Notes under the pieces: generated by a model | The model's database searches: none | Told to the model about the DNA's origin: nothing | Seen by the model: the letters and a program-made list of their open reading frames with translations, nothing else | Part shown: piece after piece, positions 2,435 to 16,341 of the stretch | Numbering within the stretch: the stretch's first letter is position 1 | Layout: the number at the start of each line of letters is the position of its first letter | From: Escherichia phage VpaE1_ev108 | Length of the DNA stretch: 64,000 nt | Sequence record: LR597658 | Reading direction: 5' to 3' (one strand) | Translations under genes and position numbers: made by a program

Positions 2435-3544
2435 ATGACTACTAAAACTAAAGCACAGATTGACGCAGAAATTTACAAACTGGTTAAAGAAGGTAAGCTG
2501 ACTAAAACAGCTATTGCACAGAAATTTAATACTTCAACCCGTTCAGTTGGTCGTGCTGTAGAGCGTCATGAAGCAACTTTAAAAGGGGATAAGAAGGCAA
2601 CTTCTACACCAGCTACGAAGACTTTGAAGCAAGTTGCTAAGACATTTAAAAAGAAAGCTGACAAACCAGTTGAAAAGGTCGTTAAAGATGCTGTACAGAA
2701 AGCTCCAGTAAATAAACTGCATGAAGCTATGCAGAAAGATGACAAAATTGAGTACATGATTACTGGCGACTCTGTAATTATGACTTATGGTTCAGAATCT
2801 GAAATTGTTGAGTCTACTCATCCGAACTATCAAGAGATTGTAGTTCATGTTGTGAAAGGTGAGTTCAAGAAAGCCTTTGAACTGATGAATATTCGTAAGT
2901 CTATCGAAAACTTCACTCAGGGTGCTATCACAATCAAAGGTGACAAGCTATTCTACGGTGCTGTTGAGATGCGTTCTACTCTGGTTGACCGTATTCTTCA
3001 CATGATGAAGACTGGAGATAAAGGCTTTGAACGCCTTGTGATGTTCTTCGAAAAACTGATGGAAAACCCATCTAAAGACTCTGTAGAACAACTTTGGGGC
3101 TTTGTATCTCACCTTGATGTTGAAATTGATGAAGAAGGCTACATCATTGGTTGGAAGAAAGTATCTACTCGTGAAGGTAAGCTGGTTGACTCCCACACCT
3201 ACAAAGTTCCTAACGATTTGGGTAACATTGTAGAGATGCCACGTTGGATGGTTGATAATAACCGTAACGTGACTTGCTCTCAAGGTCTTCATGTTGGTGC
3301 TTGGGATTATGTTCGTAGCTTCTCAGGTGATACAATCCTGAAAGTTCGTGTCCACCCACGAGATGTTGTATCTGTTCCAACTGATTACAATGATATGAAA
3401 ATGCGTTCATCACGTTATGAAGTTGCAGCTATCGTTGATAGCCAGCGTAATGTTCTGAAAGCATGGGATGGCAAGACTGAAGCTCTACATGTTATCGTTG
3501 GTACTGCTGGCGAACTTATTTCTCAGCGTAAACGTGAAATCTAA
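2435..3544 (+). CDS. rIIB-like protein (putative), N-terminal HTH-like segment
   Basis: 369 aa ORF immediately downstream of rIIA-like gene; SD-like AGAGAG upstream; assignment by position/size only. Confidence 0.4.
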   Translation: MTTKTKAQIDAEIYKLVKEGKLTKTAIAQKFNTSTRSVGRAVERHEATLKGDKKATSTPATKTLKQVAKTFKKKADKPVEKVVKDAVQKAPVNKLHEAMQKDDKIEYMITGDSVIMTYGSESEIVESTHPNYQEIVVHVVKGEFKKAFELMNIRKSIENFTQGAITIKGDKLFYGAVEMRSTLVDRILHMMKTGDKGFERLVMFFEKLMENPSKDSVEQLWGFVSHLDVEIDEEGYIIGWKKVSTREGKLVDSHTYKVPNDLGNIVEMPRWMVDNNRNVTCSQGLHVGAWDYVRSFSGDTILKVRVHPRDVVSVPTDYNDMKMRSSRYEVAAIVDSQRNVLKAWDGKTEALHVIVGTAGELISQRKREI

Positions 3545-7193: not shown

Positions 7194-7979
7194 ATGGGTA
7201 TTGTAAAAATCATCAATGGTGATATCTTTGCTGCATTTGATAAAGGTAAGTTTGACATCATTGGTCATGGTTGTAACTGCATGAACCTAATGGGCGCAGG
7301 TATCGCTGACAAGATTTCTAAACTTTACCCAAAAGCATATGAGACCGATACAGAAGTTTATCTCTATGCAGGTGGTATAGGTCACAAACCCTGTGAGAAT
7401 TTACTAGGTAATTTCTCTGTAGCACGCTTAAAACAAGGTCGTATAGCTAACCTTTACACTCAGCTTAAGACTGGTAAAGATGCCCGATACAGTGCTTTAG
7501 AGTCATCTTTGAAACAGCTTAACAGATACTGTGAAGTTAATCAGTTGAAGAAAGTTGGTTTACCTATGATTGGTGCAGGTATCGGTGGACTTGACCCTCA
7601 AGCCATCACAGTTATCATCAATCAGGTGATGAAGAGTGTAGATGTTTATCTGTATGTCTATGAAGGCGAGATGTACCACAAGTTACGCTCAGGTTGGAAG
7701 AACTACTGTGAACCAGAATACTTTGCAGGTGTAGCAGTGTTCACAGATAACGCAGTTACCCTCTTCAGACGAAGAAAAGGTAAGATACATCAAAGTAACC
7801 CTCCGGTTGAAAAGATGTCTCTAAGTAACGCTCTAGTTACCCACCTGTCAAAGAGCAATCACAGAATTGCTGTAACATTTGGTAGTGATGCAGAAGCTTA
7901 TATCTATGCAAGAACTGATGAGGATATCGAGGCAATCTTCTCTTCACCAGAGCTTACCTTCTTAGACGCAAAGAACTAA
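7194..7979 (+). CDS. Poa1p-like macro domain protein (ADP-ribose / ADP-ribose-1''-phosphate processing)
   Basis: INGDIF ... IIGHGCNCMNLMGAGIADKISKLYPKAYE closely matches the Poa1p-type macro signature (IHSCNC..GGGIA..YPKA); GGGAGAG SD. Confidence 0.7.
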   Translation: MGIVKIINGDIFAAFDKGKFDIIGHGCNCMNLMGAGIADKISKLYPKAYETDTEVYLYAGGIGHKPCENLLGNFSVARLKQGRIANLYTQLKTGKDARYSALESSLKQLNRYCEVNQLKKVGLPMIGAGIGGLDPQAITVIINQVMKSVDVYLYVYEGEMYHKLRSGWKNYCEPEYFAGVAVFTDNAVTLFRRRKGKIHQSNPPVEKMSLSNALVTHLSKSNHRIAVTFGSDAEAYIYARTDEDIEAIFSSPELTFLDAKN

Positions 7980-8048
7980 GAAACCTCGTAGTATATTCAC
8001 AATAGACTAAGCCTTTCTTATCTGGTAAATTTTTCAGGTAAGGAGGGC

Positions 8049-8231
8049 TTTTTCATTTCAGATTTGTGCAGGTAGAGTTCTGTAGAGAAATCTATAGAGA
8101 AAATTTTGAACTCCAAAGAGAAAATTCATTTTCAAACTGTGCAGGTAATCTCCAAAGAGCTTTTTCATTTTCAAAACGTGCAGACCCCGCTCAGGTCGGG
8201 CAAGAAAAATCATTTTAGAATTGTGCAGGTA
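8049..8231. repeat. four direct repeats of ~26 bp (TTCATTTTCAAANYGTGCAGGTA) in intergenic region
   Basis: copies at about 8050, 8121, 8161 and 8205; a related TTTTGTGCAG motif also lies upstream of the gene at 3646. Confidence 0.6.
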
Positions 8232-8246
8232 GGTTTTTATAGACAG

Positions 8247-8290
8247 CCAGCCCAACCCCTCTCCCCCTCTTACTCCCCCTCTCCCCAAAA
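8247..8290. repeat. polypyrimidine (C/T-rich) tract
   Basis: AGCCCAACCCCTCTCCCCCTCTTACTCCCCCTCTCCCC in an otherwise AT-rich genome. Confidence 0.6.
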
Positions 8291-8394
8291 GTCAAGAGAA
8301 AAATTTGTAGCGGATTGAAAAATAATTCTTGATTTGCGTTCTGTTTTGTGGTAGTCGTGCGCACCCGTTTCATTACAGTTTTGCCAAAAATATT

Positions 8395-8438
8395 TTTAAA
8401 ATTTTTATTGACTCTTTGAACGTGGTTATCTAATATTT
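8395..8438 (+). promoter_or_regulatory. sigma70-like promoter
   Basis: TTGACT - 17 nt - TAATAT preceded by AT-rich TTTTTAAAATTTTTA. Confidence 0.5.
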
Positions 8439-8440
8439 AC

Positions 8441-8499
8441 ATCAACGGGGAGGGAATGACCTTCCCCACTAAATAAAATCCTAAACTGGAGATTCAAAA
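8441..8499 (+). repeat. type-A hairpin-leader cassette (copy 1 of 7)
   Basis: CAACGGGGAGGGAATGACCTTCCCC hairpin + ACTAAATAAA(A/G)TCCT(T)AAACT(A)GGAGATTC(A/T)AAAATG leader. Confidence 0.7.
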
Positions 8500-8688
8500 A
8501 TGGCATCAAGAAAAATTAAAGTTGGCGATGAGGTTAACATTAAGCACGAATACTCTTACAAAATGCTAACTATACGCTCTTATAAGGTTTATCAGGTGGA
8601 AGCTATCCACAAAGATAATACTTTTTCCTTAAAAGGGTATAGCGAACGTTTCCCTGCTGAACTCTTTGAGAAATGGAGCGCGAAATAA
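8500..8688 (+). CDS. hypothetical small protein
   Basis: 62 aa ORF directly behind type-A cassette (GGAGA SD). Confidence 0.55.
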   Translation: MASRKIKVGDEVNIKHEYSYKMLTIRSYKVYQVEAIHKDNTFSLKGYSERFPAELFEKWSAK

Positions 8689-8894
8689 TGCTTTACAGTC
8701 GTGAATTGATGGTTACAACTAACGTTAACACAAAGGCAAAACGTTTTTACATGAAAATCTGTGGCGTATGGTCCAGAATATCAGAAGCCGACTATTGCAA
8801 CTATGTAGAAACAGCTATTAATTCTAATTGCTACCTTACAAGAAACACTAAGAAATTTACAAGGCAGGCAGCGATTTACTACTACGACAAATAA
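8688..8894 (+). CDS. hypothetical small protein
   Basis: ATG overlapping upstream stop (TAATG); 68 aa. Confidence 0.45.
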   Translation: MLYSRELMVTTNVNTKAKRFYMKICGVWSRISEADYCNYVETAINSNCYLTRNTKKFTRQAAIYYYDK

Positions 8895-8980
8895 AGTACT
8901 TTACAGGGGGCTTAAAAGCTGATATCTTAAGCCCCAGATAAAGAGCTTTACCACTAAATCCTAAATTGGAGAACTTAAAA
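8892..8980 (+). repeat. type-B hairpin-leader cassette (copy 1 of 6)
   Basis: TAAAGTACTTTACA-GGGGCTTA..TAAGCCCC hairpin-AGATAAAGAGCTTTACCACTAAATCCTAAATTGGAGA..AAAAATG. Confidence 0.7.
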
Positions 8981-9361
8981 ATGGCATACCGTGCACCTAA
9001 ATTCATCAACAAAGACAACTTTCGCAACGCACTGGAGAAGTCACTTGATGAAAATTTTAAAGGTAATGTTATTGTTGTTCACTCGTTTAATTTTAAGTAT
9101 GATGTAAACGGGAATAGAATCAACCATTACACGGCAACCATGTTAGATGGTACACTTTCAAGTGAAAAAGCCATTTTACATGCACTTGCAGGACGTGGTA
9201 AAAACCTGATAAGATGCGATAAGAGACGTTATCAGGGTGGCGCATATGGTTATGATGATGCTGTTTATCATCTTGAAAATATGGGCTATTCAGTGGAAAA
9301 AGCTGGAGTGTCTCAAATAATCGGCAGTGACGGCTATGTGACAATTTTCAAAATTAACTGA
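8981..9361 (+). CDS. hypothetical protein
   Basis: ATG at 8981 behind type-B cassette (ORF-track start 8966 is a TTG inside the repeat). Confidence 0.55.
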   Translation: MAYRAPKFINKDNFRNALEKSLDENFKGNVIVVHSFNFKYDVNGNRINHYTATMLDGTLSSEKAILHALAGRGKNLIRCDKRRYQGGAYGYDDAVYHLENMGYSVEKAGVSQIIGSDGYVTIFKIN

Positions 9362-9449
9362 TAAAGTACTTTACAAGGGGCTTATAGTTCGATAAAGTAA
9401 GCCCCAGATAAAGAGCTTTACCACTAAATCCTAAATTGGAGATTCAAAA
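9362..9449 (+). repeat. type-B hairpin-leader cassette (copy 2)
   Basis: near-identical to copies at 10786 and 11915. Confidence 0.7.
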
Positions 9450-9707
9450 ATGGCTATTATCAAAAACGTTGTAATTCCTGCAAAAACTCGTGATGACGCT
9501 CGCATCATGGCGAAAAAGTTAGGCGGGAAAGTGGTTGACAATGGAAAACAATCCGCTGTAAGGTGGAACGTGAAGTCGGATAAGCAATTAACCTTAAAAC
9601 GTAATTCAAACAACCTTTTTAAAGGTGTAAAATCACTCGGTAAAGTGAACGTGTTTACCAAAAAAGGCTATAAAATGCACTTATCATTAACTGGCAATTT
9701 AATCTGA
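9450..9707 (+). CDS. hypothetical basic small protein
   Basis: 85 aa ORF behind type-B cassette. Confidence 0.55.
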   Translation: MAIIKNVVIPAKTRDDARIMAKKLGGKVVDNGKQSAVRWNVKSDKQLTLKRNSNNLFKGVKSLGKVNVFTKKGYKMHLSLTGNLI

Positions 9708-9802
9708 TAAAGTACTTTACAGGGGGCTTAAAAGTTGGTATCTTAAGCCCCAGATAAAGAGCTTTACCACTAAATCAAGTCCTTAAACTAGGAGACTCAA
9801 AA
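9707..9802 (+). repeat. type-B hairpin-leader cassette (copy 3, variant loop)
   Basis: GGGGGCTTAAAAGTTGGTATCTTAAGCCCC hairpin + conserved leader. Confidence 0.7.
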
Positions 9803-10099
9803 ATGAAATTATCAAATAAAGTTAGGGAAAATCTAAGCAAGTTACTCAACAAAATTGATTTTATCGAGACCTCAAGAAATACTCATGAGGTTATGGAATG
9901 GTTACACGGCAAAATAAAAGGCCGTCGTGTAGTGATTTGCTTATGGAATAGTTGCAGGGAGTATAAAAAGCCTGTATTGCAAATTAATGTTTATGATGAT
10001 ACTTGTAAAAGTCCTGTTAAGTCTGAAAGTGATTTACTAGAGTCTTATGAGATAACTTTAAATGGCAAAGTATCACGTAAAGAGGAAGCACCATGTTAA
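9803..10099 (+). CDS. hypothetical protein
   Basis: 98 aa ORF behind type-B cassette. Confidence 0.55.
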   Translation: MKLSNKVRENLSKLLNKIDFIETSRNTHEVMEWLHGKIKGRRVVICLWNSCREYKKPVLQINVYDDTCKSPVKSESDLLESYEITLNGKVSRKEEAPC

Positions 10100-10425
10100 T
10101 GATGGGTATCACTGCAATCATTGCCATTATAGCACTGTACAAGGCTTATAGCGCATATAATTTGGCAAGTAAGGCAATCACGCAACAGGTTAATAATAGC
10201 CTTGTAATGAGCTTTCTGGAGCGTTTAAGTGATGAACAAATAAAACGGTTAGAAATGAGCTTCAGATTTCAATCAAAAACTTATCAAATCAGCGACATTT
10301 TCAAAGATAATTTTCAGCTTGTCGATGATTATAACTCTCTGATAAATGCTTTAAATATCAGTGACTTAAAAGACTATTACACTGTAATTGTCCAAGAACT
10401 GAACAAACGAAAAAATTTCTCTTGA
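10093..10425 (+). CDS. hypothetical membrane protein
   Basis: N-terminal hydrophobic helix MLMMGITAIIAIIALY; overlaps upstream stop. Confidence 0.5.
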   Translation: MLMMGITAIIAIIALYKAYSAYNLASKAITQQVNNSLVMSFLERLSDEQIKRLEMSFRFQSKTYQISDIFKDNFQLVDDYNSLINALNISDLKDYYTVIVQELNKRKNFS

Positions 10426-10450
10426 TTTTAGTTTTAAAAACAAGTAAATT

Positions 10451-10515
10451 ACTAATCAACGGGGAGGGAATGACCTTCCCCACTAAGTAAAGTCCTTAAA
10501 CTAGGAGATTCTAAA
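10451..10515 (+). repeat. type-A hairpin-leader cassette (copy 2)
   Basis: ACTAATCAACGGGGAGGGAATGACCTTCCCC + leader. Confidence 0.7.
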
Positions 10516-10788
10516 ATGTACACTACTAACAACGGTCGCACCTTAAACGTAACCCTACGCCACTATGTAAACGGTGTAATGCACTTCGAGGATTTACAAG
10601 CTGAACAGCACATTTTGGATTGGCAACTTGCAGGATTCCAAAAAACTGCTACCGGATACGGGAAAAAGATTCCAACTAGCTGGAAAGTATACTACGAAGG
10701 CCGTTTGCGTAGAATTTATCAAGATGTATGCGGCAATAGCGCATCAAGTTACATCATAGTAAAAGGCAAAAAGCTGCATTTAGCATAA
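10516..10788 (+). CDS. hypothetical protein
   Basis: 90 aa ORF behind type-A cassette. Confidence 0.55.
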   Translation: MYTTNNGRTLNVTLRHYVNGVMHFEDLQAEQHILDWQLAGFQKTATGYGKKIPTSWKVYYEGRLRRIYQDVCGNSASSYIIVKGKKLHLA

Positions 10789-10873
10789 AGTACTTTACAA
10801 GGGGCTTATAGTTCGATAAAGTAAGCCCCAGATAAAGAGCTTTACCACTAAATCCTAAATTGGAGATTCAAAA
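10786..10873 (+). repeat. type-B hairpin-leader cassette (copy 4)
   Basis: repeat begins at the upstream stop codon. Confidence 0.7.
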
Positions 10874-11278
10874 ATGGCTATTAATAATCGTGAGTTATCT
10901 ATCTTAAAAGCACGTTTGACCGTCAACCGGATTAATGTTATCACATCATCAGCACCAGATGAAACATTGCAAAACATTATTGGGAAGATTCAAAGTATTA
11001 TCTTAGACGTTGAAAGCGTAAAAAACTCATTGGCTGACGTTGCAGCCGGTATCACGCTAGACGGTGCACAACATGAAATGGCCGACATGTTAGGCAAATC
11101 AAAGGTAATGAATAAAGAGCTTGATTTAAAGATGTTCCGATTTGCTGTTAAAGTGTGGCTATCCGTCGAGTATGACGCTAATTTTGCAATCGCTGATTTC
11201 TTTGCCACTTGGTTACAACGTAACTTAACAAATCATGATTTCCGTGATGTCTGTGATGCAATCTACGCAGAACTTTAA
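10874..11278 (+). CDS. hypothetical protein
   Basis: 134 aa ORF behind type-B cassette. Confidence 0.55.
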   Translation: MAINNRELSILKARLTVNRINVITSSAPDETLQNIIGKIQSIILDVESVKNSLADVAAGITLDGAQHEMADMLGKSKVMNKELDLKMFRFAVKVWLSVEYDANFAIADFFATWLQRNLTNHDFRDVCDAIYAEL

Positions 11279-11316
11279 AAAGATGTTGACACTGATTTTT
11301 AGATAGATTAAATTAC
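11275..11316 (+). promoter_or_regulatory. sigma70-like promoter
   Basis: AAAAAGATG-TTGACA - 17 nt - TAAATT. Confidence 0.5.
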
Positions 11317-11378
11317 TCATCAACGGGGAGGCAATAACCTCCCTACTAAATAAAGTCCTTAAACTAGGAGATTCTAAA
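11314..11378 (+). repeat. type-A hairpin-leader cassette (copy 3, compensatory stem variant)
   Basis: GGGGAGGCAATAACCTCCCTAC: stem changed on both strands relative to other copies. Confidence 0.7.
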
Positions 11379-11576
11379 ATGGCTATTATTAACGGCTTAA
11401 CCATTGAAACAACACACATCAAAGATATCAAAGTTGGTGATGTAGTCCTTTCCCACGGCGTAGAAAAAACTGTCACTGCAAAGGATATCAAAGAGGATTC
11501 TTTCATGGGTAGAACTCTCTTCGGTGATTCTTATTGCTTAGGTTATCTTGCAGTTTTAAAAGTTGTCAAAAATTAA
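11379..11576 (+). CDS. hypothetical small protein
   Basis: 65 aa ORF behind type-A cassette. Confidence 0.5.
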   Translation: MAIINGLTIETTHIKDIKVGDVVLSHGVEKTVTAKDIKEDSFMGRTLFGDSYCLGYLAVLKVVKN

Positions 11577-11577
11577 G

Positions 11578-11669
11578 TAATAAAGTACTTTACAAGGGGC
11601 TTAAAAAGTTGGTATCTTAAGCCCCAGATAAAGAGCTTTACGCAGTCCTTAAACTAGGAGATTAAAAAA
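11578..11669 (+). repeat. type-B hairpin-leader cassette (copy 5)
   Basis: GGGGCTTAAAAAGTTGGTATCTTAAGCCCC + leader variant. Confidence 0.7.
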
Positions 11670-11915
11670 ATGATGAACTATTTCAATGTCCCTGATACCT
11701 GCCGACTATTGACACAAGAAGAAAACTTGGGTAAACCTTTTCTTTACCACATGCCAGACAACACCCCAAAAACTTATAGTTACAATGTCAACCGTTTTAC
11801 CGCATACGCTGCAAAGAACGGTTATAAGTTGGTCACTCAAAAAGTAATGCTGGTTACAACCGCTGACGAGATTCCTACAGTTGCAGTTAAACTAATTTTC
11901 TCAAAAAAAAGTTAA
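11670..11915 (+). CDS. hypothetical protein
   Basis: 81 aa ORF behind type-B cassette. Confidence 0.55.
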   Translation: MMNYFNVPDTCRLLTQEENLGKPFLYHMPDNTPKTYSYNVNRFTAYAAKNGYKLVTQKVMLVTTADEIPTVAVKLIFSKKS

Positions 11916-12004
11916 ATAAAGTACTTTACAAGGGGCTTATAGTTCGATAAAGTAAGCCCCAGATAAAGAGCTTTACCACTAAATCCTAAACTGGAGATTC
12001 AAAA
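11915..12004 (+). repeat. type-B hairpin-leader cassette (copy 6)
   Basis: near-identical to copies at 9362 and 10786. Confidence 0.7.
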
Positions 12005-12568
12005 ATGAAATGCTATCACGGAACTACCCTCAAAAACTTTGTAAACCTGCTGAATGGTGGCGACAAGCCGGAAGGAATCTGGAACTGCTCATACATGGAT
12101 GATTGTTTCTACGTTTACCCAATGAACAAGATTATCAAAACGGAATGTCTGGAAGATGAGGAAGATTCTTACATTCGTGAACGCTGCATTCAAAACGCTT
12201 TAGAATCTGGGCTTATTACGGCAGCTTTCCAAATGGAAACGCAGGACGTAATTGTCATTGAGATGGATATCCCAGAGGAAGAGCTAGAGGATGATTATTC
12301 TTGTGACAACATGAGCGATATCGCCAGCTTTACCGGACACTTTGATAAAAATTGGATTATTGGCCTTCACTCGACGAAATTTAGTGCGATGTATGCACCT
12401 TTCTTTGTACCAGATGCAACTAACCGCAATTTAGGCTATGTTGACGATGATTTGTTAAGTATGGCGAAAATTGTACAGAATAGCGGTGATAGTTCCGTGT
12501 TTTGTGACTTGCTGGATAAAATCACGGCAAACATCACAGAGCGCAATTTAAAAGACTTTTTAGGTTAA
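12005..12568 (+). CDS. hypothetical acidic protein
   Basis: 187 aa ORF behind type-B cassette. Confidence 0.55.
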   Translation: MKCYHGTTLKNFVNLLNGGDKPEGIWNCSYMDDCFYVYPMNKIIKTECLEDEEDSYIRERCIQNALESGLITAAFQMETQDVIVIEMDIPEEELEDDYSCDNMSDIASFTGHFDKNWIIGLHSTKFSAMYAPFFVPDATNRNLGYVDDDLLSMAKIVQNSGDSSVFCDLLDKITANITERNLKDFLG

Positions 12569-12631
12569 TCAGTACAAAGACACCAACTTCCAACTTAAGG
12601 CCCATACAGGGCCATTTAAAGGGCTTAAATC

Positions 12632-12865
12632 ATGCTTACAACCATTTATCTTATCCTTTCTATTTGTAATGGTCATTCATGTGATTTTAAAGGGCTTGAG
12701 GAGTTTACAGGGAGTAAAGAAAATGCTATTCAAGTTTGCCAGATAGCAAGACAAGACTATCCCGCCAGTGATGATATTCAATGCTACTTTAAGACAGAAG
12801 ATGAAGACGGCGTCTATTTTGACAGTGTCGATGGTCAATATGAAATTATCATTGAAAAAGACTAG
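12632..12865 (+). CDS. hypothetical small protein
   Basis: 77 aa ORF; preceded by a different hairpin (GGCCCATACAGGGCC). Confidence 0.45.
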   Translation: MLTTIYLILSICNGHSCDFKGLEEFTGSKENAIQVCQIARQDYPASDDIQCYFKTEDEDGVYFDSVDGQYEIIIEKD

Positions 12866-12890
12866 ACAAGCCTGATAAAAGTCTGTAAAT

Positions 12891-12956
12891 TGTCAATCAA
12901 CGGGGAGGGAATGACCTTCCCCACTAAATAAAGTCCTTAAACTAGGAGATTCTAAA
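12891..12956 (+). repeat. type-A hairpin-leader cassette (copy 4)
   Basis: TGTCAATCAACGGGGAGGGAATGACCTTCCCC + leader. Confidence 0.7.
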
Positions 12957-13298
12957 ATGGCTTATGTAACTGTAATTACCGATAAAGAAGATTCATCTTG
13001 GTCAACTCAAGTAAGTGATAAGATGTCACCTATGCAGTGCCTAAAATACTTTGAGCAGTGGAACAAAGGCGAGGATGTCAGCCCCTTTCAAGTGATGCAA
13101 ATTATCCATACAGATAACGAAGGGAACAAAACGACACTTAATAGCGAGTATTACGCAAATCGTTTTGAGAGTCGAGTTGAAACGATGAAGGGGCTGCGTG
13201 AGGCCGGATATGGGCACATTGCCGCCTTGTTATGGGATAGCCTACTAAAAAATCAGCGTATCAGCTATGTAAAACCTGAAAAAATATTCATCAGTTAA
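12957..13298 (+). CDS. hypothetical protein
   Basis: 113 aa ORF behind type-A cassette. Confidence 0.55.
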   Translation: MAYVTVITDKEDSSWSTQVSDKMSPMQCLKYFEQWNKGEDVSPFQVMQIIHTDNEGNKTTLNSEYYANRFESRVETMKGLREAGYGHIAALLWDSLLKNQRISYVKPEKIFIS

Positions 13299-13319
13299 TC
13301 AATAACTTACAAAAAACTT

Positions 13320-13360
13320 TTAAAAAGATGTTGACAATCCCTCTTGACATTGGTAACTTT
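13320..13360 (+). promoter_or_regulatory. sigma70-like promoter (tandem TTGACA boxes)
   Basis: TTAAAAAGATG-TTGACA - 17 nt - TAACTT. Confidence 0.45.
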
Positions 13361-13454
13361 GTTCGAGGGGGGTTTATCTAAAAGGGATTAACTTAAAAGA
13401 TTCTTTATAGATAGACTTAAAAAAATTGCTTGCAATCAGATATCAAAACAAGTA

Positions 13455-13522
13455 AATTACTCATCAACGGGGAGGCAATAACCTCCCTACTAAGTAAAGT
13501 CCTTAAACTAGGAGATTCTAAA
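13455..13522 (+). repeat. type-A hairpin-leader cassette (copy 5)
   Basis: same compensatory stem variant as copy 3. Confidence 0.7.
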
Positions 13523-14053
13523 ATGAACAAGTTCAAAGCTATCAACTATATTCGTTCAAATAATGTAATGTCTAAGCCCGTTAAAGATACCTATGAATTT
13601 CGTTGTAATGGGGTACACTTTGCAACCATTACCAAATCAGAAAACGGGGCTTATTACGTTCATCGTCGTAATGTTGCAACCGTTGTAGTCTCTCACTTTA
13701 TGCAAGCTGTCGCGGAATTATTACCGTTATTCTTAGAGATTTATCTAGATGAGTGTAAAAACGTTCACAATCACGTTAAAAACCTTTTAAATAGTTATAA
13801 AATGGCTTATGAACGTTCTATCAAGTCCTTAAACAAGTTTTACAACGCACCTAAAAATACTGTATCAATAGCCTATGCTGCAAATGGTGAGATGGTAAAC
13901 TTATCCAATGTGGAAGAAATCAAGCTGCATGATTTACGCCCTAGCGGTTACTCTAAGACTCTCGGTGAAGGTTTAACGTTCAATATCAAGAACTTAGAGA
14001 AAACTTTAAAAGATATTGAAAAAGATATTGACGAGACAATCAAAAATCTGTAA
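13523..14053 (+). CDS. hypothetical protein
   Basis: ATG at 13523 behind cassette; ORF-track start 13430 would translate through the repeat. Confidence 0.55.
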   Translation: MNKFKAINYIRSNNVMSKPVKDTYEFRCNGVHFATITKSENGAYYVHRRNVATVVVSHFMQAVAELLPLFLEIYLDECKNVHNHVKNLLNSYKMAYERSIKSLNKFYNAPKNTVSIAYAANGEMVNLSNVEEIKLHDLRPSGYSKTLGEGLTFNIKNLEKTLKDIEKDIDETIKNL

Positions 14054-14114
14054 ATTGTCAATCAACGGGGGATGACCTCCCCCACTAAATAAAATCCTAA
14101 ACTGGAGATTCAAA
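14051..14114 (+). repeat. type-A hairpin-leader cassette (copy 6, variant stem GGGGGA/TCCCCC)
   Basis: CAACGGGGGATGACCTCCCCCAC + leader. Confidence 0.7.
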
Positions 14115-14378
14115 ATGGAACACGTCGAACTGACCACACTTTTACAAATTGCAACCGACAAAGAGGATGTAGCACTATTCCATCGTATCGAGAGTGATTT
14201 GTTCAATGGTGAAATCATTAAAGAGTCTTACGAAGTTGTCGGATTCAAAGACGGTAAAGCGTTCGGATTCTTTGACCTCGACAAAGGCAAAGCGGTTACA
14301 AAATATGATGTTTTATCTTGTGAGATTCTGACAAAATACAACGAAAAAAGACTTGCAACATACGCCAACATGCAGTAA
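14115..14378 (+). CDS. hypothetical protein
   Basis: 87 aa ORF behind type-A cassette. Confidence 0.55.
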   Translation: MEHVELTTLLQIATDKEDVALFHRIESDLFNGEIIKESYEVVGFKDGKAFGFFDLDKGKAVTKYDVLSCEILTKYNEKRLATYANMQ

Positions 14379-14458
14379 ATTACTAATCAACGGGGAGGGA
14401 ATGACCTTCCCCACTAAATAAAGTCCTTAAACTACTTCCTAAACTGGAGATTCTAAAA
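14376..14458 (+). repeat. type-A hairpin-leader cassette (copy 7, leader partly duplicated)
   Basis: leader contains CCTTAAACTACTTCCTAAACTGGAGA duplication. Confidence 0.7.
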
Positions 14459-14707
14459 ATGGCAACTATCCGCGCTACTGTTAACGAGTTCGGTTTTTCC
14501 TCTCTGGATGTTAAATTTGACATTGCAGGCACTGATAACACCTTTGAAATGGTGAAAAGTCTTATCAGTCAGACCATCAAAGATTATAATCCTTCGGATG
14601 AGTTCTGGGAGGAAACAAAACAAGAAGTTCTCAAGGATGGTTATACTTATCACTATTGGGGAGAAAAAATCGTCTCCCTGTACTACAACAAACAAGATTA
14701 TAACTAA
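14459..14707 (+). CDS. hypothetical protein
   Basis: 82 aa ORF behind type-A cassette. Confidence 0.55.
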   Translation: MATIRATVNEFGFSSLDVKFDIAGTDNTFEMVKSLISQTIKDYNPSDEFWEETKQEVLKDGYTYHYWGEKIVSLYYNKQDYN

Positions 14708-14745
14708 TCGACGCAGCGGGGCTAAATAGCCCCAGATACCTCAAC

Positions 14746-14770
14746 AGCCCCTATTTAAAGGGGCTTTTTT
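14746..14770 (+). terminator. intrinsic terminator closing the small-ORF array
   Basis: GCCCCT-atttaa-AGGGGC hairpin followed by TTTTTT; preceded by a type-B-like hairpin GGGGCTAAATAGCCCC. Confidence 0.6.
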
Positions 14771-16341
14771 ACGTCTATCCAATCCTTATACAATCCCTTT
14801 CCAGAATCTTATCAGACCTTAAAAGCAATAACTCTATAGTCTACTCTATAACCTCTTATCAAATCAACTTAAATAAAAGCCAATAACCCCCAGAAAGGGG
14901 ATGGCCCATTTAAACGCTCTATAAAGCTCTATAACAGCCTTATCAACCTAACTTAAGGGATTGCATTAACCAACCTTAAAAAGCTCTTTACAGGGCTTTA
15001 TAGAGACTTAAAAGAATCTTATAAGGGTGTAAGCTTTATTATCTCATTAGTATTCTTGTGAATATCTAAACAACCCCTTGATAGTCACTAAAAAGTATGT
15101 TATAGGGGCTTTAAAGTTACTTTGAAGTAGCTTAAAAGTTACGTAAAAGAGGCTATAAAGTTACGTAAATGCTAGCCCCCTTAACATTTTCTTAACAATT
15201 TCTTAACAAACCCTACATAGTTATGCTTGTTAGCAACTTGTTAGCCCCTTGTTAAATCTCTGTTAATACCACGTAAAAGCTTTGTAAGAGTCTTTGACAT
15301 AGCCTTTAAAGCTTCTGTAAAGCCCTATAAAGAGCTTTCTTCATAGTTGGGGTGTAATTACTAGGAAGAGCCTTAAAAGAGCTTACAAGGAGCTATAGAG
15401 AGCTTTTAAGAGGGCTATTTAAAGAGTCACTAAGAGGGAAAGGGAACGATAAGAAAGAGATAGTGACCATGTTAATAGCTTGTTAAAAAGATTAAACACT
15501 TGTTAGAGACTTGTTAATTATCTTAACAAAATAACTCTTAACATTTAACTACTTAGCTCTTGTTAGTCATCTGTTAAGATTCTGTAAAGACTATTCAGCA
15601 CTTGTTAGAAAACTGTTACAACCTTGTTAGACTTGTTAAGAATCTGTTAAGACCTTTGAAGAGTTGTTAAGAAGATGTGAGAACTGTTAAGAGATTGTTA
15701 AGGATATTTTAAAATTTTGCAAAGGGGATGTTACAGGGATGTTAAGGGCTACCAAGCAGATATACATCTTCTACAGATATTTTTCAGTTCCTTCAAAGAC
15801 CCTAAAAAATGACTTGATAGTCCTATTTTATAAAAATTTTAAGATTCTGAATAATTACCTATACAGCCTTTTAAAAATACAGGTAATAACAGGCTTATAA
15901 GATACCTTGTTAGTACCGTGTTAGACCTTGTGAGATAAGGTCTGTAAAGATATTCCTGTTAAGTTTGTTAAAACAGTCTATATAGAGGCTTAGTAGCACC
16001 TAGTGAACACCTATAGAGAGTAACATAGCTGACATAGAGATTAAGAGGTGTATAGGAGCTTCTAAGAGGATGTAGAGAGATGGTTAAGGTGATTGTATAG
16101 GTTGTTTAGAAGGCTTGTTAGAGGGCTATTTAGAAGGGCTATACAGAGGGCTATTAAGACCACTAGATAGATACTAAGATACTATATAGTACTATATAAC
16201 TATATAGAGAGTAAGATTAAGAAGGTTGTTAAGAAGGATAGATATTTTATTCACATATGATGGTGACCCAGAGGTTGGGACAACCGATAAAATTTTATAA
16301 AAATTAAAAAGCCCCCGATTAAGGAGGCTCTTAAGATATTT
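14771..16341. promoter_or_regulatory. 1.6 kb ORF-free, motif-dense region between convergent gene blocks (candidate origin / regulatory hub)
   Basis: no ORF of 60 aa or more on either strand; more than 20 copies of YTGTTAAG/CTTGTTAG between about 15180 and 16240; tandem ~20 bp units of GCT(A/T)T(A/T)AAAG.. and palindromic CTTWWAAG 8-mers. Confidence 0.5.

Follow-up and report, generated by a model that had tools for sequence, protein, structure and literature searches.

Our analysis suggests, with a probability of roughly 70%, that the array of small genes in this Felixounavirus (Felix O1-like) phage consists of successive self-contained modules for early-gene expression, of the PeSL (promoter-early stem-loop) type, each read by the host sigma70 RNA polymerase. 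Each module would comprise, in order, a host-type promoter (preceded in type A by an A-tract), a G-run/C-run stem-loop, an unstructured leader with GGAG, and either a single small gene or a translationally coupled pair. The evidence consists of the array anatomy, the conservation pattern, covariation and recombination junctions, all of which we observed directly. "Window" refers to the whole 64-kb stretch analyzed.

Thirteen repeat units head the small genes

The array contains 16 small ORFs, named A to P in array order (8500..14707, + strand), and 13 repeat units, seven of type A and six of type B, each heading one of 13 of these ORFs (Table 1). These counts and the places of all 13 units agree with the original prediction, but the array does not start at 8441 as proposed there: the units begin earlier, the first at the -35 box at 8408. 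No further units were found elsewhere in the window, where the motifs CAACGGGG, AGATAAAGAGCTTTAC and TAAAYT(N)GGAGA were confined to 8408-14458; none of the three occurred in the last 42 kb of one related genome. Repeats of 84-99 nt with 60-100% identity cannot have arisen by chance.

Table 1 Coordinates of the genes, cassettes and boundary elements of the array
Feature	Position	Strand	Gene headed (ATG)	-35	-10	Hairpin (P3 in type B)	Remarks
Left array boundary	8009..8050	+					Canonical intrinsic terminator, Felix O1 t13; closes upstream operon
Type-A cassette 1 (A1)	8408..8499	+	A (8500)	TTGACT 8408-8413	TAATAT 8431-8436	8447-8467	GGAG in leader
Gene A	8500-8688	+
Gene B	8688-8894	+
Type-B cassette 1 (B1)	8891..8980	+	C (8981)	TTTACA 8900-8905	TATCTT 8923-8928	8907-8935	AGATAAAGAGCTTTAC 8936-8951, then leader
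Gene C	8981-9361	+
Type-B cassette 2 (B2)	9361..9449	+	D (9450)	9370-9375	TAAAGT 9393-9398	9377-9405
Gene D	9450-9707	+
Type-B cassette 3 (B3)	9707..9802	+	E (9803)	9716-9721	TATCTT 9739-9744	9723-9751
Gene E	9803-10099	+
Gene F	10093-10425	+
Type-A cassette 2 (A2)	10422..10515	+	G (10516)	TTGATT 10422-10427	TAAATT 10445-10450	10461-10481
Gene G	10516-10788	+
Type-B cassette 4 (B4)	10785..10873	+	H (10874)	10794-10799	TAAAGT 10817-10822	10801-10829
Gene H	10874-11278	+
Type-A cassette 3 (A3)	11286..11378	+	I (11379)	TTGACA 11286-11291	TAAATT 11309-11314	11325-11344	GGGGAGG/CCTCCCT variant
Gene I	11379-11576	+
Type-B cassette 5 (B5)	11580..11669	+	J (11670)	11589-11594	TATCTT 11613-11618	11596-11625	18-nt spacer
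Gene J	11670-11915	+
Type-B cassette 6 (B6)	11916..12004	+	K (12005)	11925-11930	TAAAGT 11948-11953	11932-11960
Gene K	12005-12568	+
Gene L	12632-12865	+
Type-A cassette 4 (A4)	12863..12956	+	M (12957)	TAGACA 12863-12868	TAAATT 12886-12891	12902-12922
Gene M	12957-13298	+
Isolated promoter-like site	13331..13359	+					TTGACA-N17-TAACTT; no hairpin, leader or ORF behind
Type-A cassette 5 (A5)	13430..13522	+	N (13523)	TTGCAA 13430-13435	TAAATT 13453-13458	13469-13488
Gene N	13523-14053	+
Type-A cassette 6 (A6)	14028..14114	+	O (14115)	TTGACG 14028-14033	TAAATT 14051-14056	14067-14083	GGGGGA/TCCCCC variant
Gene O	14115-14378	+
Type-A cassette 7 (A7)	14353..14458	+	P (14459)	TTGCAA 14353-14358	TAAATT 14376-14381	14392-14412
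Gene P	14459-14707	+
Hairpin-only half-unit	14718..14733	+				GGGGCTA-AA-TAGCCCC	Then AGATACC; after last gene, just before true terminator
Right array boundary	14746..14765	+					Canonical intrinsic terminator, Felix O1 t23: AGCCCC..GGGGCT + T6 run

Only the two flanking terminators passed our terminator scan, which found no canonical terminator inside the array before 14746. The half-unit after the last gene has neither -35 nor -10 and is kept in Felix O1, AYO145A and others. The isolated promoter-like site may be a decayed half-cassette; relatives carry small extra ORFs at its position, and AYO145A has an annotated promoter at the homologous site.

All units share a leader, with GGAG ~8 nt ahead of the ATG in its standard form. 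It had been described as the same throughout, but it takes two main forms, CCTTAAACTAGGAGA and CCTAAA(C/T)TGGAGA, unit B5 lacks ACTAAAT, and unit A7 has the leader core duplicated in tandem. Type-B units had likewise been said to start exactly at the upstream stop codon. This is so in two of the six, where the TAA forms the first bases of TAAAG (in B1 the unit start is the TAA stop at 8892-8894); two others have a TGA followed immediately by the TAA of the unit, and two have a gap of 1 or 5 nt.

ORFs B and F show translational coupling to the preceding gene, and L has a different small hairpin of its own. As anticipated, the proteins have no recognizable function: a Pfam search with all 16 matched no family, and each has a match to one PHROG family, all of these without known function (E 1e-31 to 1e-93). 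A part in host takeover or anti-defense, as originally proposed for the array, is a tentative suggestion. In Felix O1, RT-PCR of ORFs 16, 20, 21 and 22 peaked 5 min after infection, and the array genes ORFs 17, 19 and 23 are listed in a later class (PMC3185647). The promoter type and the 5-min RT-PCR peaks weakly back early expression of the array.

Both cassette types carry predicted sigma70-type promoters

The original prediction took the units for hairpin-plus-leader RNA elements. Its two types and shared leader stand, but it missed that both types appear to be, first of all, sigma70-type promoters; its observation is confirmed and its interpretation partly supported. A -35/-10 pair lies in one fixed register in 13/13 units, with the consensus TTGnnn/TAGACA-N17-TAAATT/TAATAT in type A and TTTACA-N17/18-TAnnnT in type B. 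The -35 boxes occur in at least six different upstream contexts, two of them coding sequences (genes N and O), and stop codons of array genes coincide with promoter hexamers in several units: the -35 of A2 includes the TGA of gene F, the TAG in the -35 of A4 is the stop of gene L, and in A6 and A7, whose -35 boxes lie within N and O respectively, the TAA of the -10 is the stop of that same gene. A5-7 tracts precede the -35 box in all seven type-A units, and the A3 promoter is also annotated in AYO145A. Counting relatives, TAnnnT is present in 114/125 type-A units, with TTGnnn/TAGACA exactly 17 nt upstream in 111/125. Three type-A promoters match the consensus at 8/12 positions overall, and several -10 hexamers at only 4/6.

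In type B, the hairpin loop and 3' arm contain the -10, and a lower helix that pairs with +4..+15 contains the -35. Among variants from relatives, TAnnnT lies 17-18 nt past TTTACA in 56 of 57, and a TGn extended -10 is present in 57/97. Across ~100 such variants, -12T and -11A are fixed in an otherwise variable loop (~1.75 bits, versus 0.2-0.5 bits at the next three positions), and positions -10 to -8 vary freely, giving 12 different hexamers. The T at -7 doubles as stem base, and part of its conservation may come from structure rather than from the promoter. We found no mapped transcription start or RNA end in the literature on Felix O1-like phages; promoter use, exact start sites and the geometry of +1, then 3 nt, then hairpin are predictions. 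Since both cassettes read as promoters, the hairpins would not be free-standing RNA elements within one long transcript.

The hairpins are maintained by selection

Type-A hairpins are G-rich, begin ~3 nt past the predicted start site and fold at -10 to -14 kcal/mol (7 units); type-B hairpins fold at about -12 to -13 kcal/mol (6 units), with AGATAAAGAGCTTTAC after each. As the type-B hairpin sits within the promoter spacer, it would exist only in RNA reading through from upstream. When folded, such read-through RNA reaches -24 kcal/mol (z = -3.2), the extended fold having a 1x1 mismatch between P1 (6 bp) and P2 (5 bp) and a 3x3 internal loop between P2 and P3 (8-9 bp). In RNA begun at the type-B promoter, the leader is essentially without structure (z = -1.05).

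We picked 127 units by promoter and leader only and folded their first 36 nt: 122 folded at -4 kcal/mol or better, with a mean of -12.5 versus -3.9 kcal/mol in shuffles. Exactly three unpaired nt precede the stem in 103 of them, and stem pairs 4-6 alternate GC/AU/CG/GU. Of the cells in 90 distinct type-B variants, 97.2% are paired, versus 30-57% with the partner slid. Pair 6-56 occurs as GC in 70 variants and as UA in 13. The variants share ancestry, and perhaps 2-4 independent changes per helix account for the covariation. Their U.G wobbles (position 21-41 in 39 variants, 7-55 in 82) point to sense-strand RNA. A phiEa21-4 unit has GGUG/CACC where others have GGGG/CCCC, and the stem variants GGGAGG/CCTCCC and GGGGGA/TCCCCC reported for the array are indeed present. 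Such compensatory and wobble changes, in this phage as in its relatives, bear out the proposal that the hairpins are under selection.

The hairpins also lack U-tracts, as previously noted, unlike the true terminators flanking the array: the 8 nt 3' of each stem contain 0-1 U (AGAUAAAG, ACUAAAUA). We therefore infer a role in RNA stability, processing or insulation. Some relatives have promoter and leader with a 4-bp hairpin or none, and in phiEa21-4 the G-rich hairpin encloses the -10 rather than trailing the start, so that 5'-end stabilization cannot be their universal role.

Whole modules are exchanged among relatives

Nine complete arrays are collinear, sharing one gene order and differing by indels of whole single modules; a tandem duplication of gene D is the one duplication among them. 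Genes C, J, K and M have a type-A head in some phages and a type-B head in others, and chimeric units place the crossover in the shared leader. Cassette B3 is itself a chimera, its left part being the relatives' unit before gene Q and its leader that of the unit before E; it is the junction at which gene Q is missing. The same architecture is retained with diverged sequence in Felixounavirus, Mooglevirus, Suspvirus and Kolesnikvirus, and in Erwinia phage phiEa21-4. The suggestion that a modular organization supports gene shuffling thus finds support.

Model and alternative explanations

A hairpin right at the mRNA 5' end protects E. coli mRNAs from 5'-end-dependent decay. Our model proposes that in type A transcription starts 7-8 nt past TAAATT, so that the mRNA opens 5'-AAC and passes directly into the 6-8 bp hairpin that would form its 5' end. 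In type B, RNA begun at its own promoter (around AGAUAAAG...) would carry an open leader and no hairpin, and in RNA from upstream promoters the whole 62-nt unit would fold into three helices directly after the preceding stop codon. At the RNA level, the hairpins would serve as intercistronic stabilizers, sites of processing or insulators, and would not terminate transcription efficiently. The common 3' leader and the promoter and hairpin shared within each type would allow homologous recombination between modules, deleting, inserting, duplicating and re-heading genes and generating the variable Ounavirinae arrays. A portable promoter, RNA hairpin and ribosome-binding leader would explain gene gain, loss and duplication in relatives.

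One could instead envisage, in line with the original prediction, a single long early transcript without internal promoters, in which the units act only at the RNA level, in processing, stability or translational control. Hairpin conservation through sense-strand wobble and compensatory changes, the missing U-tracts, and a first unit behind a strong promoter at 8408 with no terminator before 14746 all fit this picture, but it is quite improbable, as it leaves unexplained the invariant TA at -12/-11 in a variable loop, the fixed 17-18 nt distance to TTTACA/TTGnnn, the TGn extended -10, the A-tracts, and TTGACG/TTGCAA exactly 17 nt before TAAATT in the coding sequence of genes N and O. Attenuation is the crux of another reading, in which the hairpins are PeSL-like terminators or attenuators that insulate modules from upstream transcription and prevent promoter occlusion. 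A PeSL stem-loop lowered lacZ expression to roughly the same extent as rrnB T1 (PMC2839356), a hairpin-only half-unit follows the last gene, and the hairpin's position relative to the promoter differs by unit type and genus, which fits action on incoming, not outgoing, RNA. Nevertheless, we regard this as unlikely, given the near absence of U after each stem, the canonical U6 terminators at operon ends in the same genome, and the promoterless genes B, F and L, which, with no canonical terminator inside the array, argue for normal read-through.

The flanks of the type-B hairpin invite two further interpretations. RNase III processing sites occur between T7 early genes, and the extended fold, an irregular helix of 19-20 bp interrupted by an internal loop, could be a similar putative site, at which read-through RNA is cut into monocistronic pieces with a 3' hairpin left on the upstream piece. 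The P1/P2 helices joining the two flanks are kept (97% paired), with a GC pair replaced by UA, and cross-pairing is preserved better than the self-palindromy of the upstream site; yet the invariance of P2 here is partly ascertainment, the helix length is near the lower limit for RNase III, and type A offers only a weak equivalent (-35 pairing with an ATCAAC/GTCAAT segment), making such cleavage rather unlikely. Alternatively, the same flanks could be candidate operators at which a dimeric repressor silences the array once the early phase is over. Both TAAAGTACTTTA, which lies over the -35, and TAAAGAGCTTTA, at ~+5 to +16, are (near-)palindromes of 12 bp placed where classic operators sit, the 16-mer downstream hardly varies, and an annotated transcriptional regulator is encoded elsewhere in the genome. 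This is improbable: upstream-site symmetry falls to 75% in diverged units, compared with 94% for cross-pairing, the changes seen preserve pairing between the two sites, type-A units lack such palindromes, and the candidate operators have no known binding protein. Finally, the repeats could be no more than scars of recombination or short selfish repeats, without any regulatory role. They do serve as recombination substrates, and there are decayed half-units at 13331-13359 and 14718-14733, but an architecture kept through sequence divergence in four genera, with conservation falling exactly at promoter and stem positions, makes this barely credible.

Relation to known systems

The Felix O1 repeats were already printed in 2010, and the leader was remarked on in phage Mordin in 2015; we found no paper reading these repeats as promoter-hairpin cassettes. 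The expression modules proposed here have their closest known kind in the PeSLs of T4-like phages, for which promoter and terminator/attenuator activity and mini-circle formation have been shown experimentally (PMC2839356; PMC4122927). PeSL stem-loops are reported to terminate transcription in a reporter assay, whereas the hairpins here read as poor terminators; the parts of the two are the same.

Array anatomy and genome setting

A sequence search with the 6.5-kb array as query matched ~250 phage records, whose hosts are nearly all Escherichia, Salmonella, Shigella or Citrobacter, and every match examined is affiliated with the Ounavirinae. The best matches are Felixounavirus genomes, at 94-96% identity, covering only 50-80% of the query and in several pieces. 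The left end of the window lies near the conventional genome start (rIIA), and the array is the counterpart of Felix O1 ORFs 15-23, between the Felix O1 terminators t13 and t23.

Sixteen + strand ORFs of 62-187 aa, named A to P, make up the array. Sequence reading and a repeat finder recovered the seven type-A and six type-B units of the original prediction, all on the + strand, and 13 of the 16 ORFs lie behind a unit, as it had stated. B and F are translationally coupled to the preceding gene, and L has a different small hairpin (GGCCC-ATACA-GGGCC), without a promoter-like site, ahead of it. Because K and L co-occur in all nine arrays compared, they are probably one transcription unit.

Two details required adjustment. 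The units had been said to end in the same leader; a leader with GGAG ~8 nt before the ATG does close each of the 13, but it comes in two forms. Type-B units had been said to start exactly at the upstream stop codon, which is the case in two of the six, the upstream stops of the type lying at the edge or at most 5 nt away. Among the type-A units, four stops fall inside promoter hexamers and one lies 8 nt upstream of the -35, while two units stand behind longer intergenic stretches. When the 64-kb window was scanned, the unit-diagnostic motifs were confined to the array region: 13 unit copies fall within 6 kb and zero elsewhere in the window, and none of the motifs occurs in the remaining 42 kb of a related genome.

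Coordinates of the features (window positions unless another genome is named)
Feature	Genome	Position
Gene just upstream of the array	window	7194-7979
Terminator, upstream border (Felix O1 t13)	window	8009-8050
TCATTT(T)CAnAnTGTGCAGGTA repeats and C-rich tract	window	8053-8290
C-rich tract	window	8255-8290
Unit-diagnostic motifs	window	8408-14458
Hairpin before gene L	window	12596-12631
Terminator, downstream border (Felix O1 t23)	window	14746-14765
ORF-free stretch	window	14780-16340
Inverted TTAACA cluster	window	15180-15222
[CT]TGTTA[AG] repeats	window	15225-15261, 15470-15712, 15905-15930
ORF19 as annotated	Felix O1	2984-3301
Terminator hairpin and promoter before gp29	phiEa21-4	~15165-15274

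None of the 16 array proteins has a match in Pfam, and each matches one PHROGs family of unknown function. Homologues of gene K are confined to the Ounavirinae. The gene just upstream of the array, called ‘phosphatase’ in relatives, encodes a Macro (ADP-ribose-binding/hydrolase) domain (Pfam PF01661, E = 3.9e-7). Between the upstream terminator and the first early promoter stand four copies of TCATTT(T)CAnAnTGTGCAGGTA and, after them, a C-rich tract. Felix O1 and AYO145A have nearly the same repeats, but other sequence takes the place of the C-tract in AYO145A. On the other side of the array, an ORF-free stretch of ~1.5 kb, unannotated in AYO145A too, carries [CT]TGTTA[AG] repeats at 10-11 nt spacing and an inverted TTAACA cluster. 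This resembles an iteron-type origin or an array of protein-binding sites.

Both unit types carry predicted sigma70-like promoters

The units had been read as a hairpin plus a leader. That observation is real and well described, but it missed the promoters, and this changes the interpretation substantially: both unit types are predicted promoter cassettes. In type A, TTGnnn (once TAGACA) and, after 17 nt, TAAATT or TAATAT precede every hairpin, with exactly 10 nt between the end of the -10 and the stem. Every type-B unit has TTTACA and, 17 or 18 nt further on, TAAAGT or TATCTT, the -10 occupying loop bases of the hairpin plus the first of its 3′ arm. At the sequence level, a sigma70-like -35/-10 pair is present in 13 of 13 units. 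An A5-7 tract lies within 15 nt upstream of the -35 in all seven type-A units, and AATAAAGTAC precedes type B. A generic promoter scan returned 32 promoter-like sites vs 21.5 +/- 5.3 in shuffles.

Since a match to the consensus is weak evidence by itself, we collected relatives by an exact-match scan of IMG/VR, using as query the 16-mer that follows the type-B hairpin. The matches included ~45 Ounavirinae loci; many unrelated contigs also matched, within coding sequence and without the hairpin, and were left out. TAnnnT lies 17-18 nt from TTTACA in 56 of 57 distinct type-B cores (155 instances), its three middle bases taking 12 different forms. The information content of the loop is ~1.75 bits at -12 and -11 vs 0.2-0.5 bits at -10 to -8, and the other loop positions are variable. 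The invariance of TTTACA and AGATAAA in type B proves nothing, because both were search anchors; the TA in the loop was not an anchor. An extended -10 (TGn) is found in 57 of 97 type-B variants, none of the 57 belonging to the TAAAGT class.

In the type-A units of relatives, TAnnnT is present in 114 of 125 and TTGnnn or TAGACA at 17-nt spacing in 111 of 125. The type-A -35 boxes of the window occur in at least six unrelated upstream contexts. Where cassettes overlap genes N and O, the -35 and the spacer belong to the coding sequence, and TAAATT supplies the stop codon with its TAA. Likewise, the stop of gene L (TAG) provides the first bases of TAGACA, and that of gene F (TGA) lies inside TTGATT. 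Such a conservation pattern is what a working sigma70 promoter would predict, and it is hard to explain otherwise.

The type-A hairpin lies at the predicted 5′ end

Within the window, the hairpins of both unit types have folding energies of -10 to -14 kcal/mol. To avoid selection on the hairpin, the type-A test set took in every non-B unit as defined by promoter and leader only. In 122 of 127 such units the first 36 nt of the predicted RNA reach -4 kcal/mol or better, and the mean fold is -12.5 vs -3.9 kcal/mol for shuffles. If +1 is placed at the 8th nt downstream of the -10, which is a predicted start, the stem is preceded by exactly 3 unpaired nt in 103 of the 122 and by 4 in 12. Stem positions 4-6 vary (GC/AU/CG/GU), the stem variants including GGGGAGGG/CCUUCCCC, GGGAGG/CCUCCC, GGGGC/GCCCC, GGGC/GCCC and GGGA/UCCC. 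The type-A mRNA would begin with 5′-AAC followed by the hairpin, the geometry that protects E. coli mRNAs from 5′-end-dependent decay.

The annotated start codon of Felix O1 ORF19 falls within the loop of a type-A hairpin (GGGAATG); the ATG behind the standard leader is the real start, and the protein then has 90 aa, as in relatives.

The type-B unit folds as three helices in read-through RNA

In read-through RNA, the 62-nt type-B unit folds into three helices (-24 kcal/mol, z = -3.2). P1 joins the stop-codon region, UAAAGU, with GCUUUA; P2 joins the -35 bases, CUUUA, with UAAAG; and P3 is the main stem. The result is an irregular helix of 19-20 bp in total with a 3x3 internal loop. RNA initiated at the unit’s own predicted promoter has an essentially unstructured leader (z = -1.05).

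Across 90 distinct type-B variants, 97.2% of the cells are paired vs 30-57% with the partner slid. Pair 6-56 (positions in the unit) is GC in 70 variants and UA in 13, and U.G wobbles number 39 at pair 21-41 and 82 at pair 7-55, all in variants related by descent, with independent compensatory events only a few per helix. Because these wobbles are mismatches on the opposite strand, the structure belongs to the sense-strand RNA. One subclass has a shifted P3, GGGGUUAU/AUAGCCCC or GGGGCUA/UAGCCCC. Compensatory and wobble changes in type A, type B and Erwinia phage phiEa21-4 uphold the proposal that the hairpins are under selection.

We tentatively propose, at a probability of about 0.3, that the type-B unit, conserved across the Ounavirinae, is of dual use, as a promoter in DNA and a processing or stability signal in RNA. 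As DNA it would be a sigma70 promoter; as incoming RNA it would form the three-helix structure, pairing the -35 and the start region and presenting the -10 in the loop, and so direct processing or 3′-end protection of the upstream cistron. RNase III, which in T7 early mRNA cleaves irregular helices of ~20 bp with an internal loop, might process the irregular helix of 19-20 bp, or the structure might block 3′ exonucleases after cleavage in the A-rich tail. If this proposal is right, one portable, recombination-prone module would physically couple the making of an RNA 3′ end on one gene to re-initiation on the following gene, in a dual-use geometry unlike that of classical terminators and of promoter-coupled terminators.

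Alternative roles for the hairpins

As originally described, the hairpins lack a U-tract and do not resemble terminators: the 8 nt after each stem hold 0-1 U, the tails being AGAUAAAG and ACUAAAUA. The GC-rich hairpin of an intrinsic terminator is present and its U-rich tract is absent, which makes strong termination doubtful. In a terminator scan, the sole operon-end terminators, with U6 runs, were those at the two array borders. The missing U-tract points to roles in RNA stability, processing or insulation and not to efficient termination. Moreover, the position of the hairpin relative to the promoter differs among units, so a role confined to the unit’s own transcript cannot be general. The type-B flanks might alternatively be two palindromic operators bound by protein, and in diverged units the upstream site is still self-symmetric at 75%; cross-pairing between the flanks, however, stands at 94% in the same units. 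As cross-pairing outlasts self-symmetry, RNA pairing is mildly favoured and the operators are a minor alternative.

Other known elements were compared with the units. An Rfam search (evalue mode) of 7900-15300 gave no match. GGGGCTTA is similar to the MotA box of T4 middle promoters (TGCTTtA ~12 nt before the -10), but its spacing of 8 nt is wrong; proteins retargeting the host polymerase are reported to be absent from these phages (PMC3185647). N4-type hairpin promoters and single-strand (Frpo-like) promoters do not fit either, the units having ordinary duplex -35/-10 elements, with the -10 in the loop and not rebuilt in the stem. As for lambda nut-like boxA/boxB, GAGCTTTA agrees at only 6 of 8 boxA positions, and the hairpin loops vary freely; this reading gains no support.

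The cassettes are conserved and shuffled among relatives

The composite element reaches beyond Felixounavirus. Diverged type-B variants belong to Mooglevirus (Citrobacter phage Michonne), and phiSUSP1 (Suspvirus) also matches. In phiEa21-4 (Kolesnikvirus) the same logic appears in different sequence: TTTACA-N17-TAGTAT/TAATCT, a P3 of GGUGUUUAU/AUAAGCACC (a G-C to U-A swap), TAAAGAGCTTTA on both flanks, and a standard leader of its own, CCCTTATAAAGGAATCAAAACATG. Further phiEa21-4 units have the -10 in the loop or the 3′ arm of a G-rich hairpin. The persistence of this logic in diverged sequence across genera indicates that the element is old within the Ounavirinae.

We compared nine complete arrays, namely the window, AYO145A and seven IMG/VR contigs including Michonne. 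The idea of gene shuffling gained support from this comparison, since the arrays vary by single-module indels and one duplication. They have the gene order C D Q E F G H I J K L M N O P in common, where Q is a gene missing from the window, and differ in which single modules they contain (A, B, Q, I, J, O and others vary); in Michonne, gene D is duplicated in tandem. Ahead of genes C, J, K and M, the cassette is type A in some phages but type B in others. The Felix O1 array has nine genes and seven cassettes. In the window, which lacks Q, the unit before E matches the AYO145A unit before Q exactly on its left (up to ACTAAAT) and the leader before E exactly on its right. Similarly, in L064, a locus from a relative, the unit before K has its left part from the unit before I, joined to K. 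These chimeric units place the crossovers within the common leader, where homologous recombination between modules would be expected to put them.

In Michonne, a leader and its ATG are fused directly to another type-B unit (CTTTACATGGGG... immediately after the ATG). This fusion probably arose by recombination via the CTTTACA common to the start of gene B (ATGCTTTACAG).

Implications

Classic as Salmonella typing phages, the Felix O1-like phages are common candidates for biocontrol and therapy, and their transcription programme is essentially unmapped; our literature search found no transcription-start or transcriptome study of Felixounavirus. A sequence-string search of the literature located the repeat in a single publication, that on the Felix O1 genome; it gives 57-bp and 39-bp direct repeats without comment and found no promoters there (PMC3185647). 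Reading the units as promoter, hairpin and leader would supply 13 predicted early start sites per genome, and reading them as modules would explain the strong left-arm differences in accessory genes between otherwise similar phages. The array is a place to search for host-takeover or anti-defence functions, and an extension of the PeSL principle to these phages would suggest that portable expression cassettes are a general route by which lytic phages try small host-directed genes. With its predicted activities, each unit also packs a promoter, a 5′ hairpin and a strong RBS into ~90 nt, a compact natural part that could be used in engineering.

Comparison with known systems

The T7 phi10 promoter and gene 10 leader combine a promoter, a G-rich hairpin at the 5′ end, an AU-rich spacer and a strong SD. 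Type A mirrors this arrangement, except that its promoter is of the host sigma70 type and not of the phage RNA polymerase type. The predicted type-A hairpin, ~3-4 nt from the predicted 5′ end, would also resemble the 5′-terminal stem-loops that stabilise the ompA and papA mRNAs, among others, of E. coli (Emory, Bouvet and Belasco 1992, cited through PMC3997798); there, a hairpin within ~4 unpaired nt of the mRNA 5′ end blocks 5′-end-dependent decay.

The Mordin genome note recorded the leader, at 26 bp, and drew a parallel with the start-associated sequences (SAS) of cluster K mycobacteriophages (PMC4611695). SAS is a conserved sequence just before the start codons of a gene subset, often with ESAS, an inverted repeat with variable spacer, ahead of it; the latter was judged not to form mRNA hairpins, since departures were uncompensated (Pope et al. 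2011, PMC3203893). A conserved leader directly before start codons is common to both systems. The inverted repeats here, in contrast, show compensatory and wobble changes, SAS are not described as promoters, and the sequences and hosts are unrelated. The units therefore fall outside SAS/ESAS, whose inverted repeats are uncompensated.

In the promoter-coupled terminators of bacteria, the -35 comes from the stem-loop and the spacer from the T-tract, with the -10 just beyond (Fletcher et al. 2026 preprint, 10.64898/2026.08.19.745784). There as here, a single DNA stretch serves two neighbours, encoding an RNA stem-loop of the unit upstream together with promoter elements of the unit downstream. 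The type-B geometry is different, however: the stem-loop fills the spacer, with the -35 upstream of the main stem, the -10 in the loop and no T-tract, which places it outside that class. The exact promoter-coupled geometry does occur in phiEa21-4 before gp29, where a terminator hairpin with a T-run, GGGGGC-TTTACA-GCCCC, has the -35 hexamer in its loop and TATACT follows 17 nt downstream.

Of the known kinds, the PeSL comes closest. It joins a sigma70-like early promoter, in most cases behind an AT-rich stretch, to a GN-loop-CN stem-loop and was described in the T4-like phages RB49/phi1, T4/PST and KVP40/nt-1 (Arbiol et al. 2010, PMC2839356; Comeau et al. 2014, PMC4122927). PeSLs form five subclasses by stem-loop position (between -35 and -10, over the -10, or just downstream), span the distance from stop codon to SD/ATG, and cluster before ORFans in hyperplastic regions. 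They mediate modular shuffling and mini-circles, and promoter and terminator activities were shown in reporters (PMC2839356; PMC4122927). Our units differ in several respects. They belong to Ounavirinae of ~88 kb, not T4-like phages, and no obvious sequence relationship was seen; two tightly conserved types stand in a single array, as opposed to ~50 dispersed PeSL units; one long leader is common to all units; the hairpins lack U-tracts; and the extended three-helix fold of type B pairs the -35 itself. The likenesses are nevertheless extensive. Each unit has a promoter, with the stem-loop adjoining it (type A) or in the spacer and over the -10 (type B), and AT-rich sequence upstream, including the A5-7 tracts before type-A -35 boxes. 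The units fill the space between the stop codon of one gene and the SD/ATG of its successor, and many copies cluster in a variable region of small genes without assigned function. Indels and replacements between relatives are bounded by units, as the nine arrays and their chimeric junctions illustrate, and decayed half-units occur. Since every PeSL feature that can be assessed from sequence is present, the array is best viewed as a putative PeSL-kind system of unusually regular design in the Ounavirinae, which would carry the PeSL principle beyond T4-like phages into a myovirus subfamily unrelated to them.
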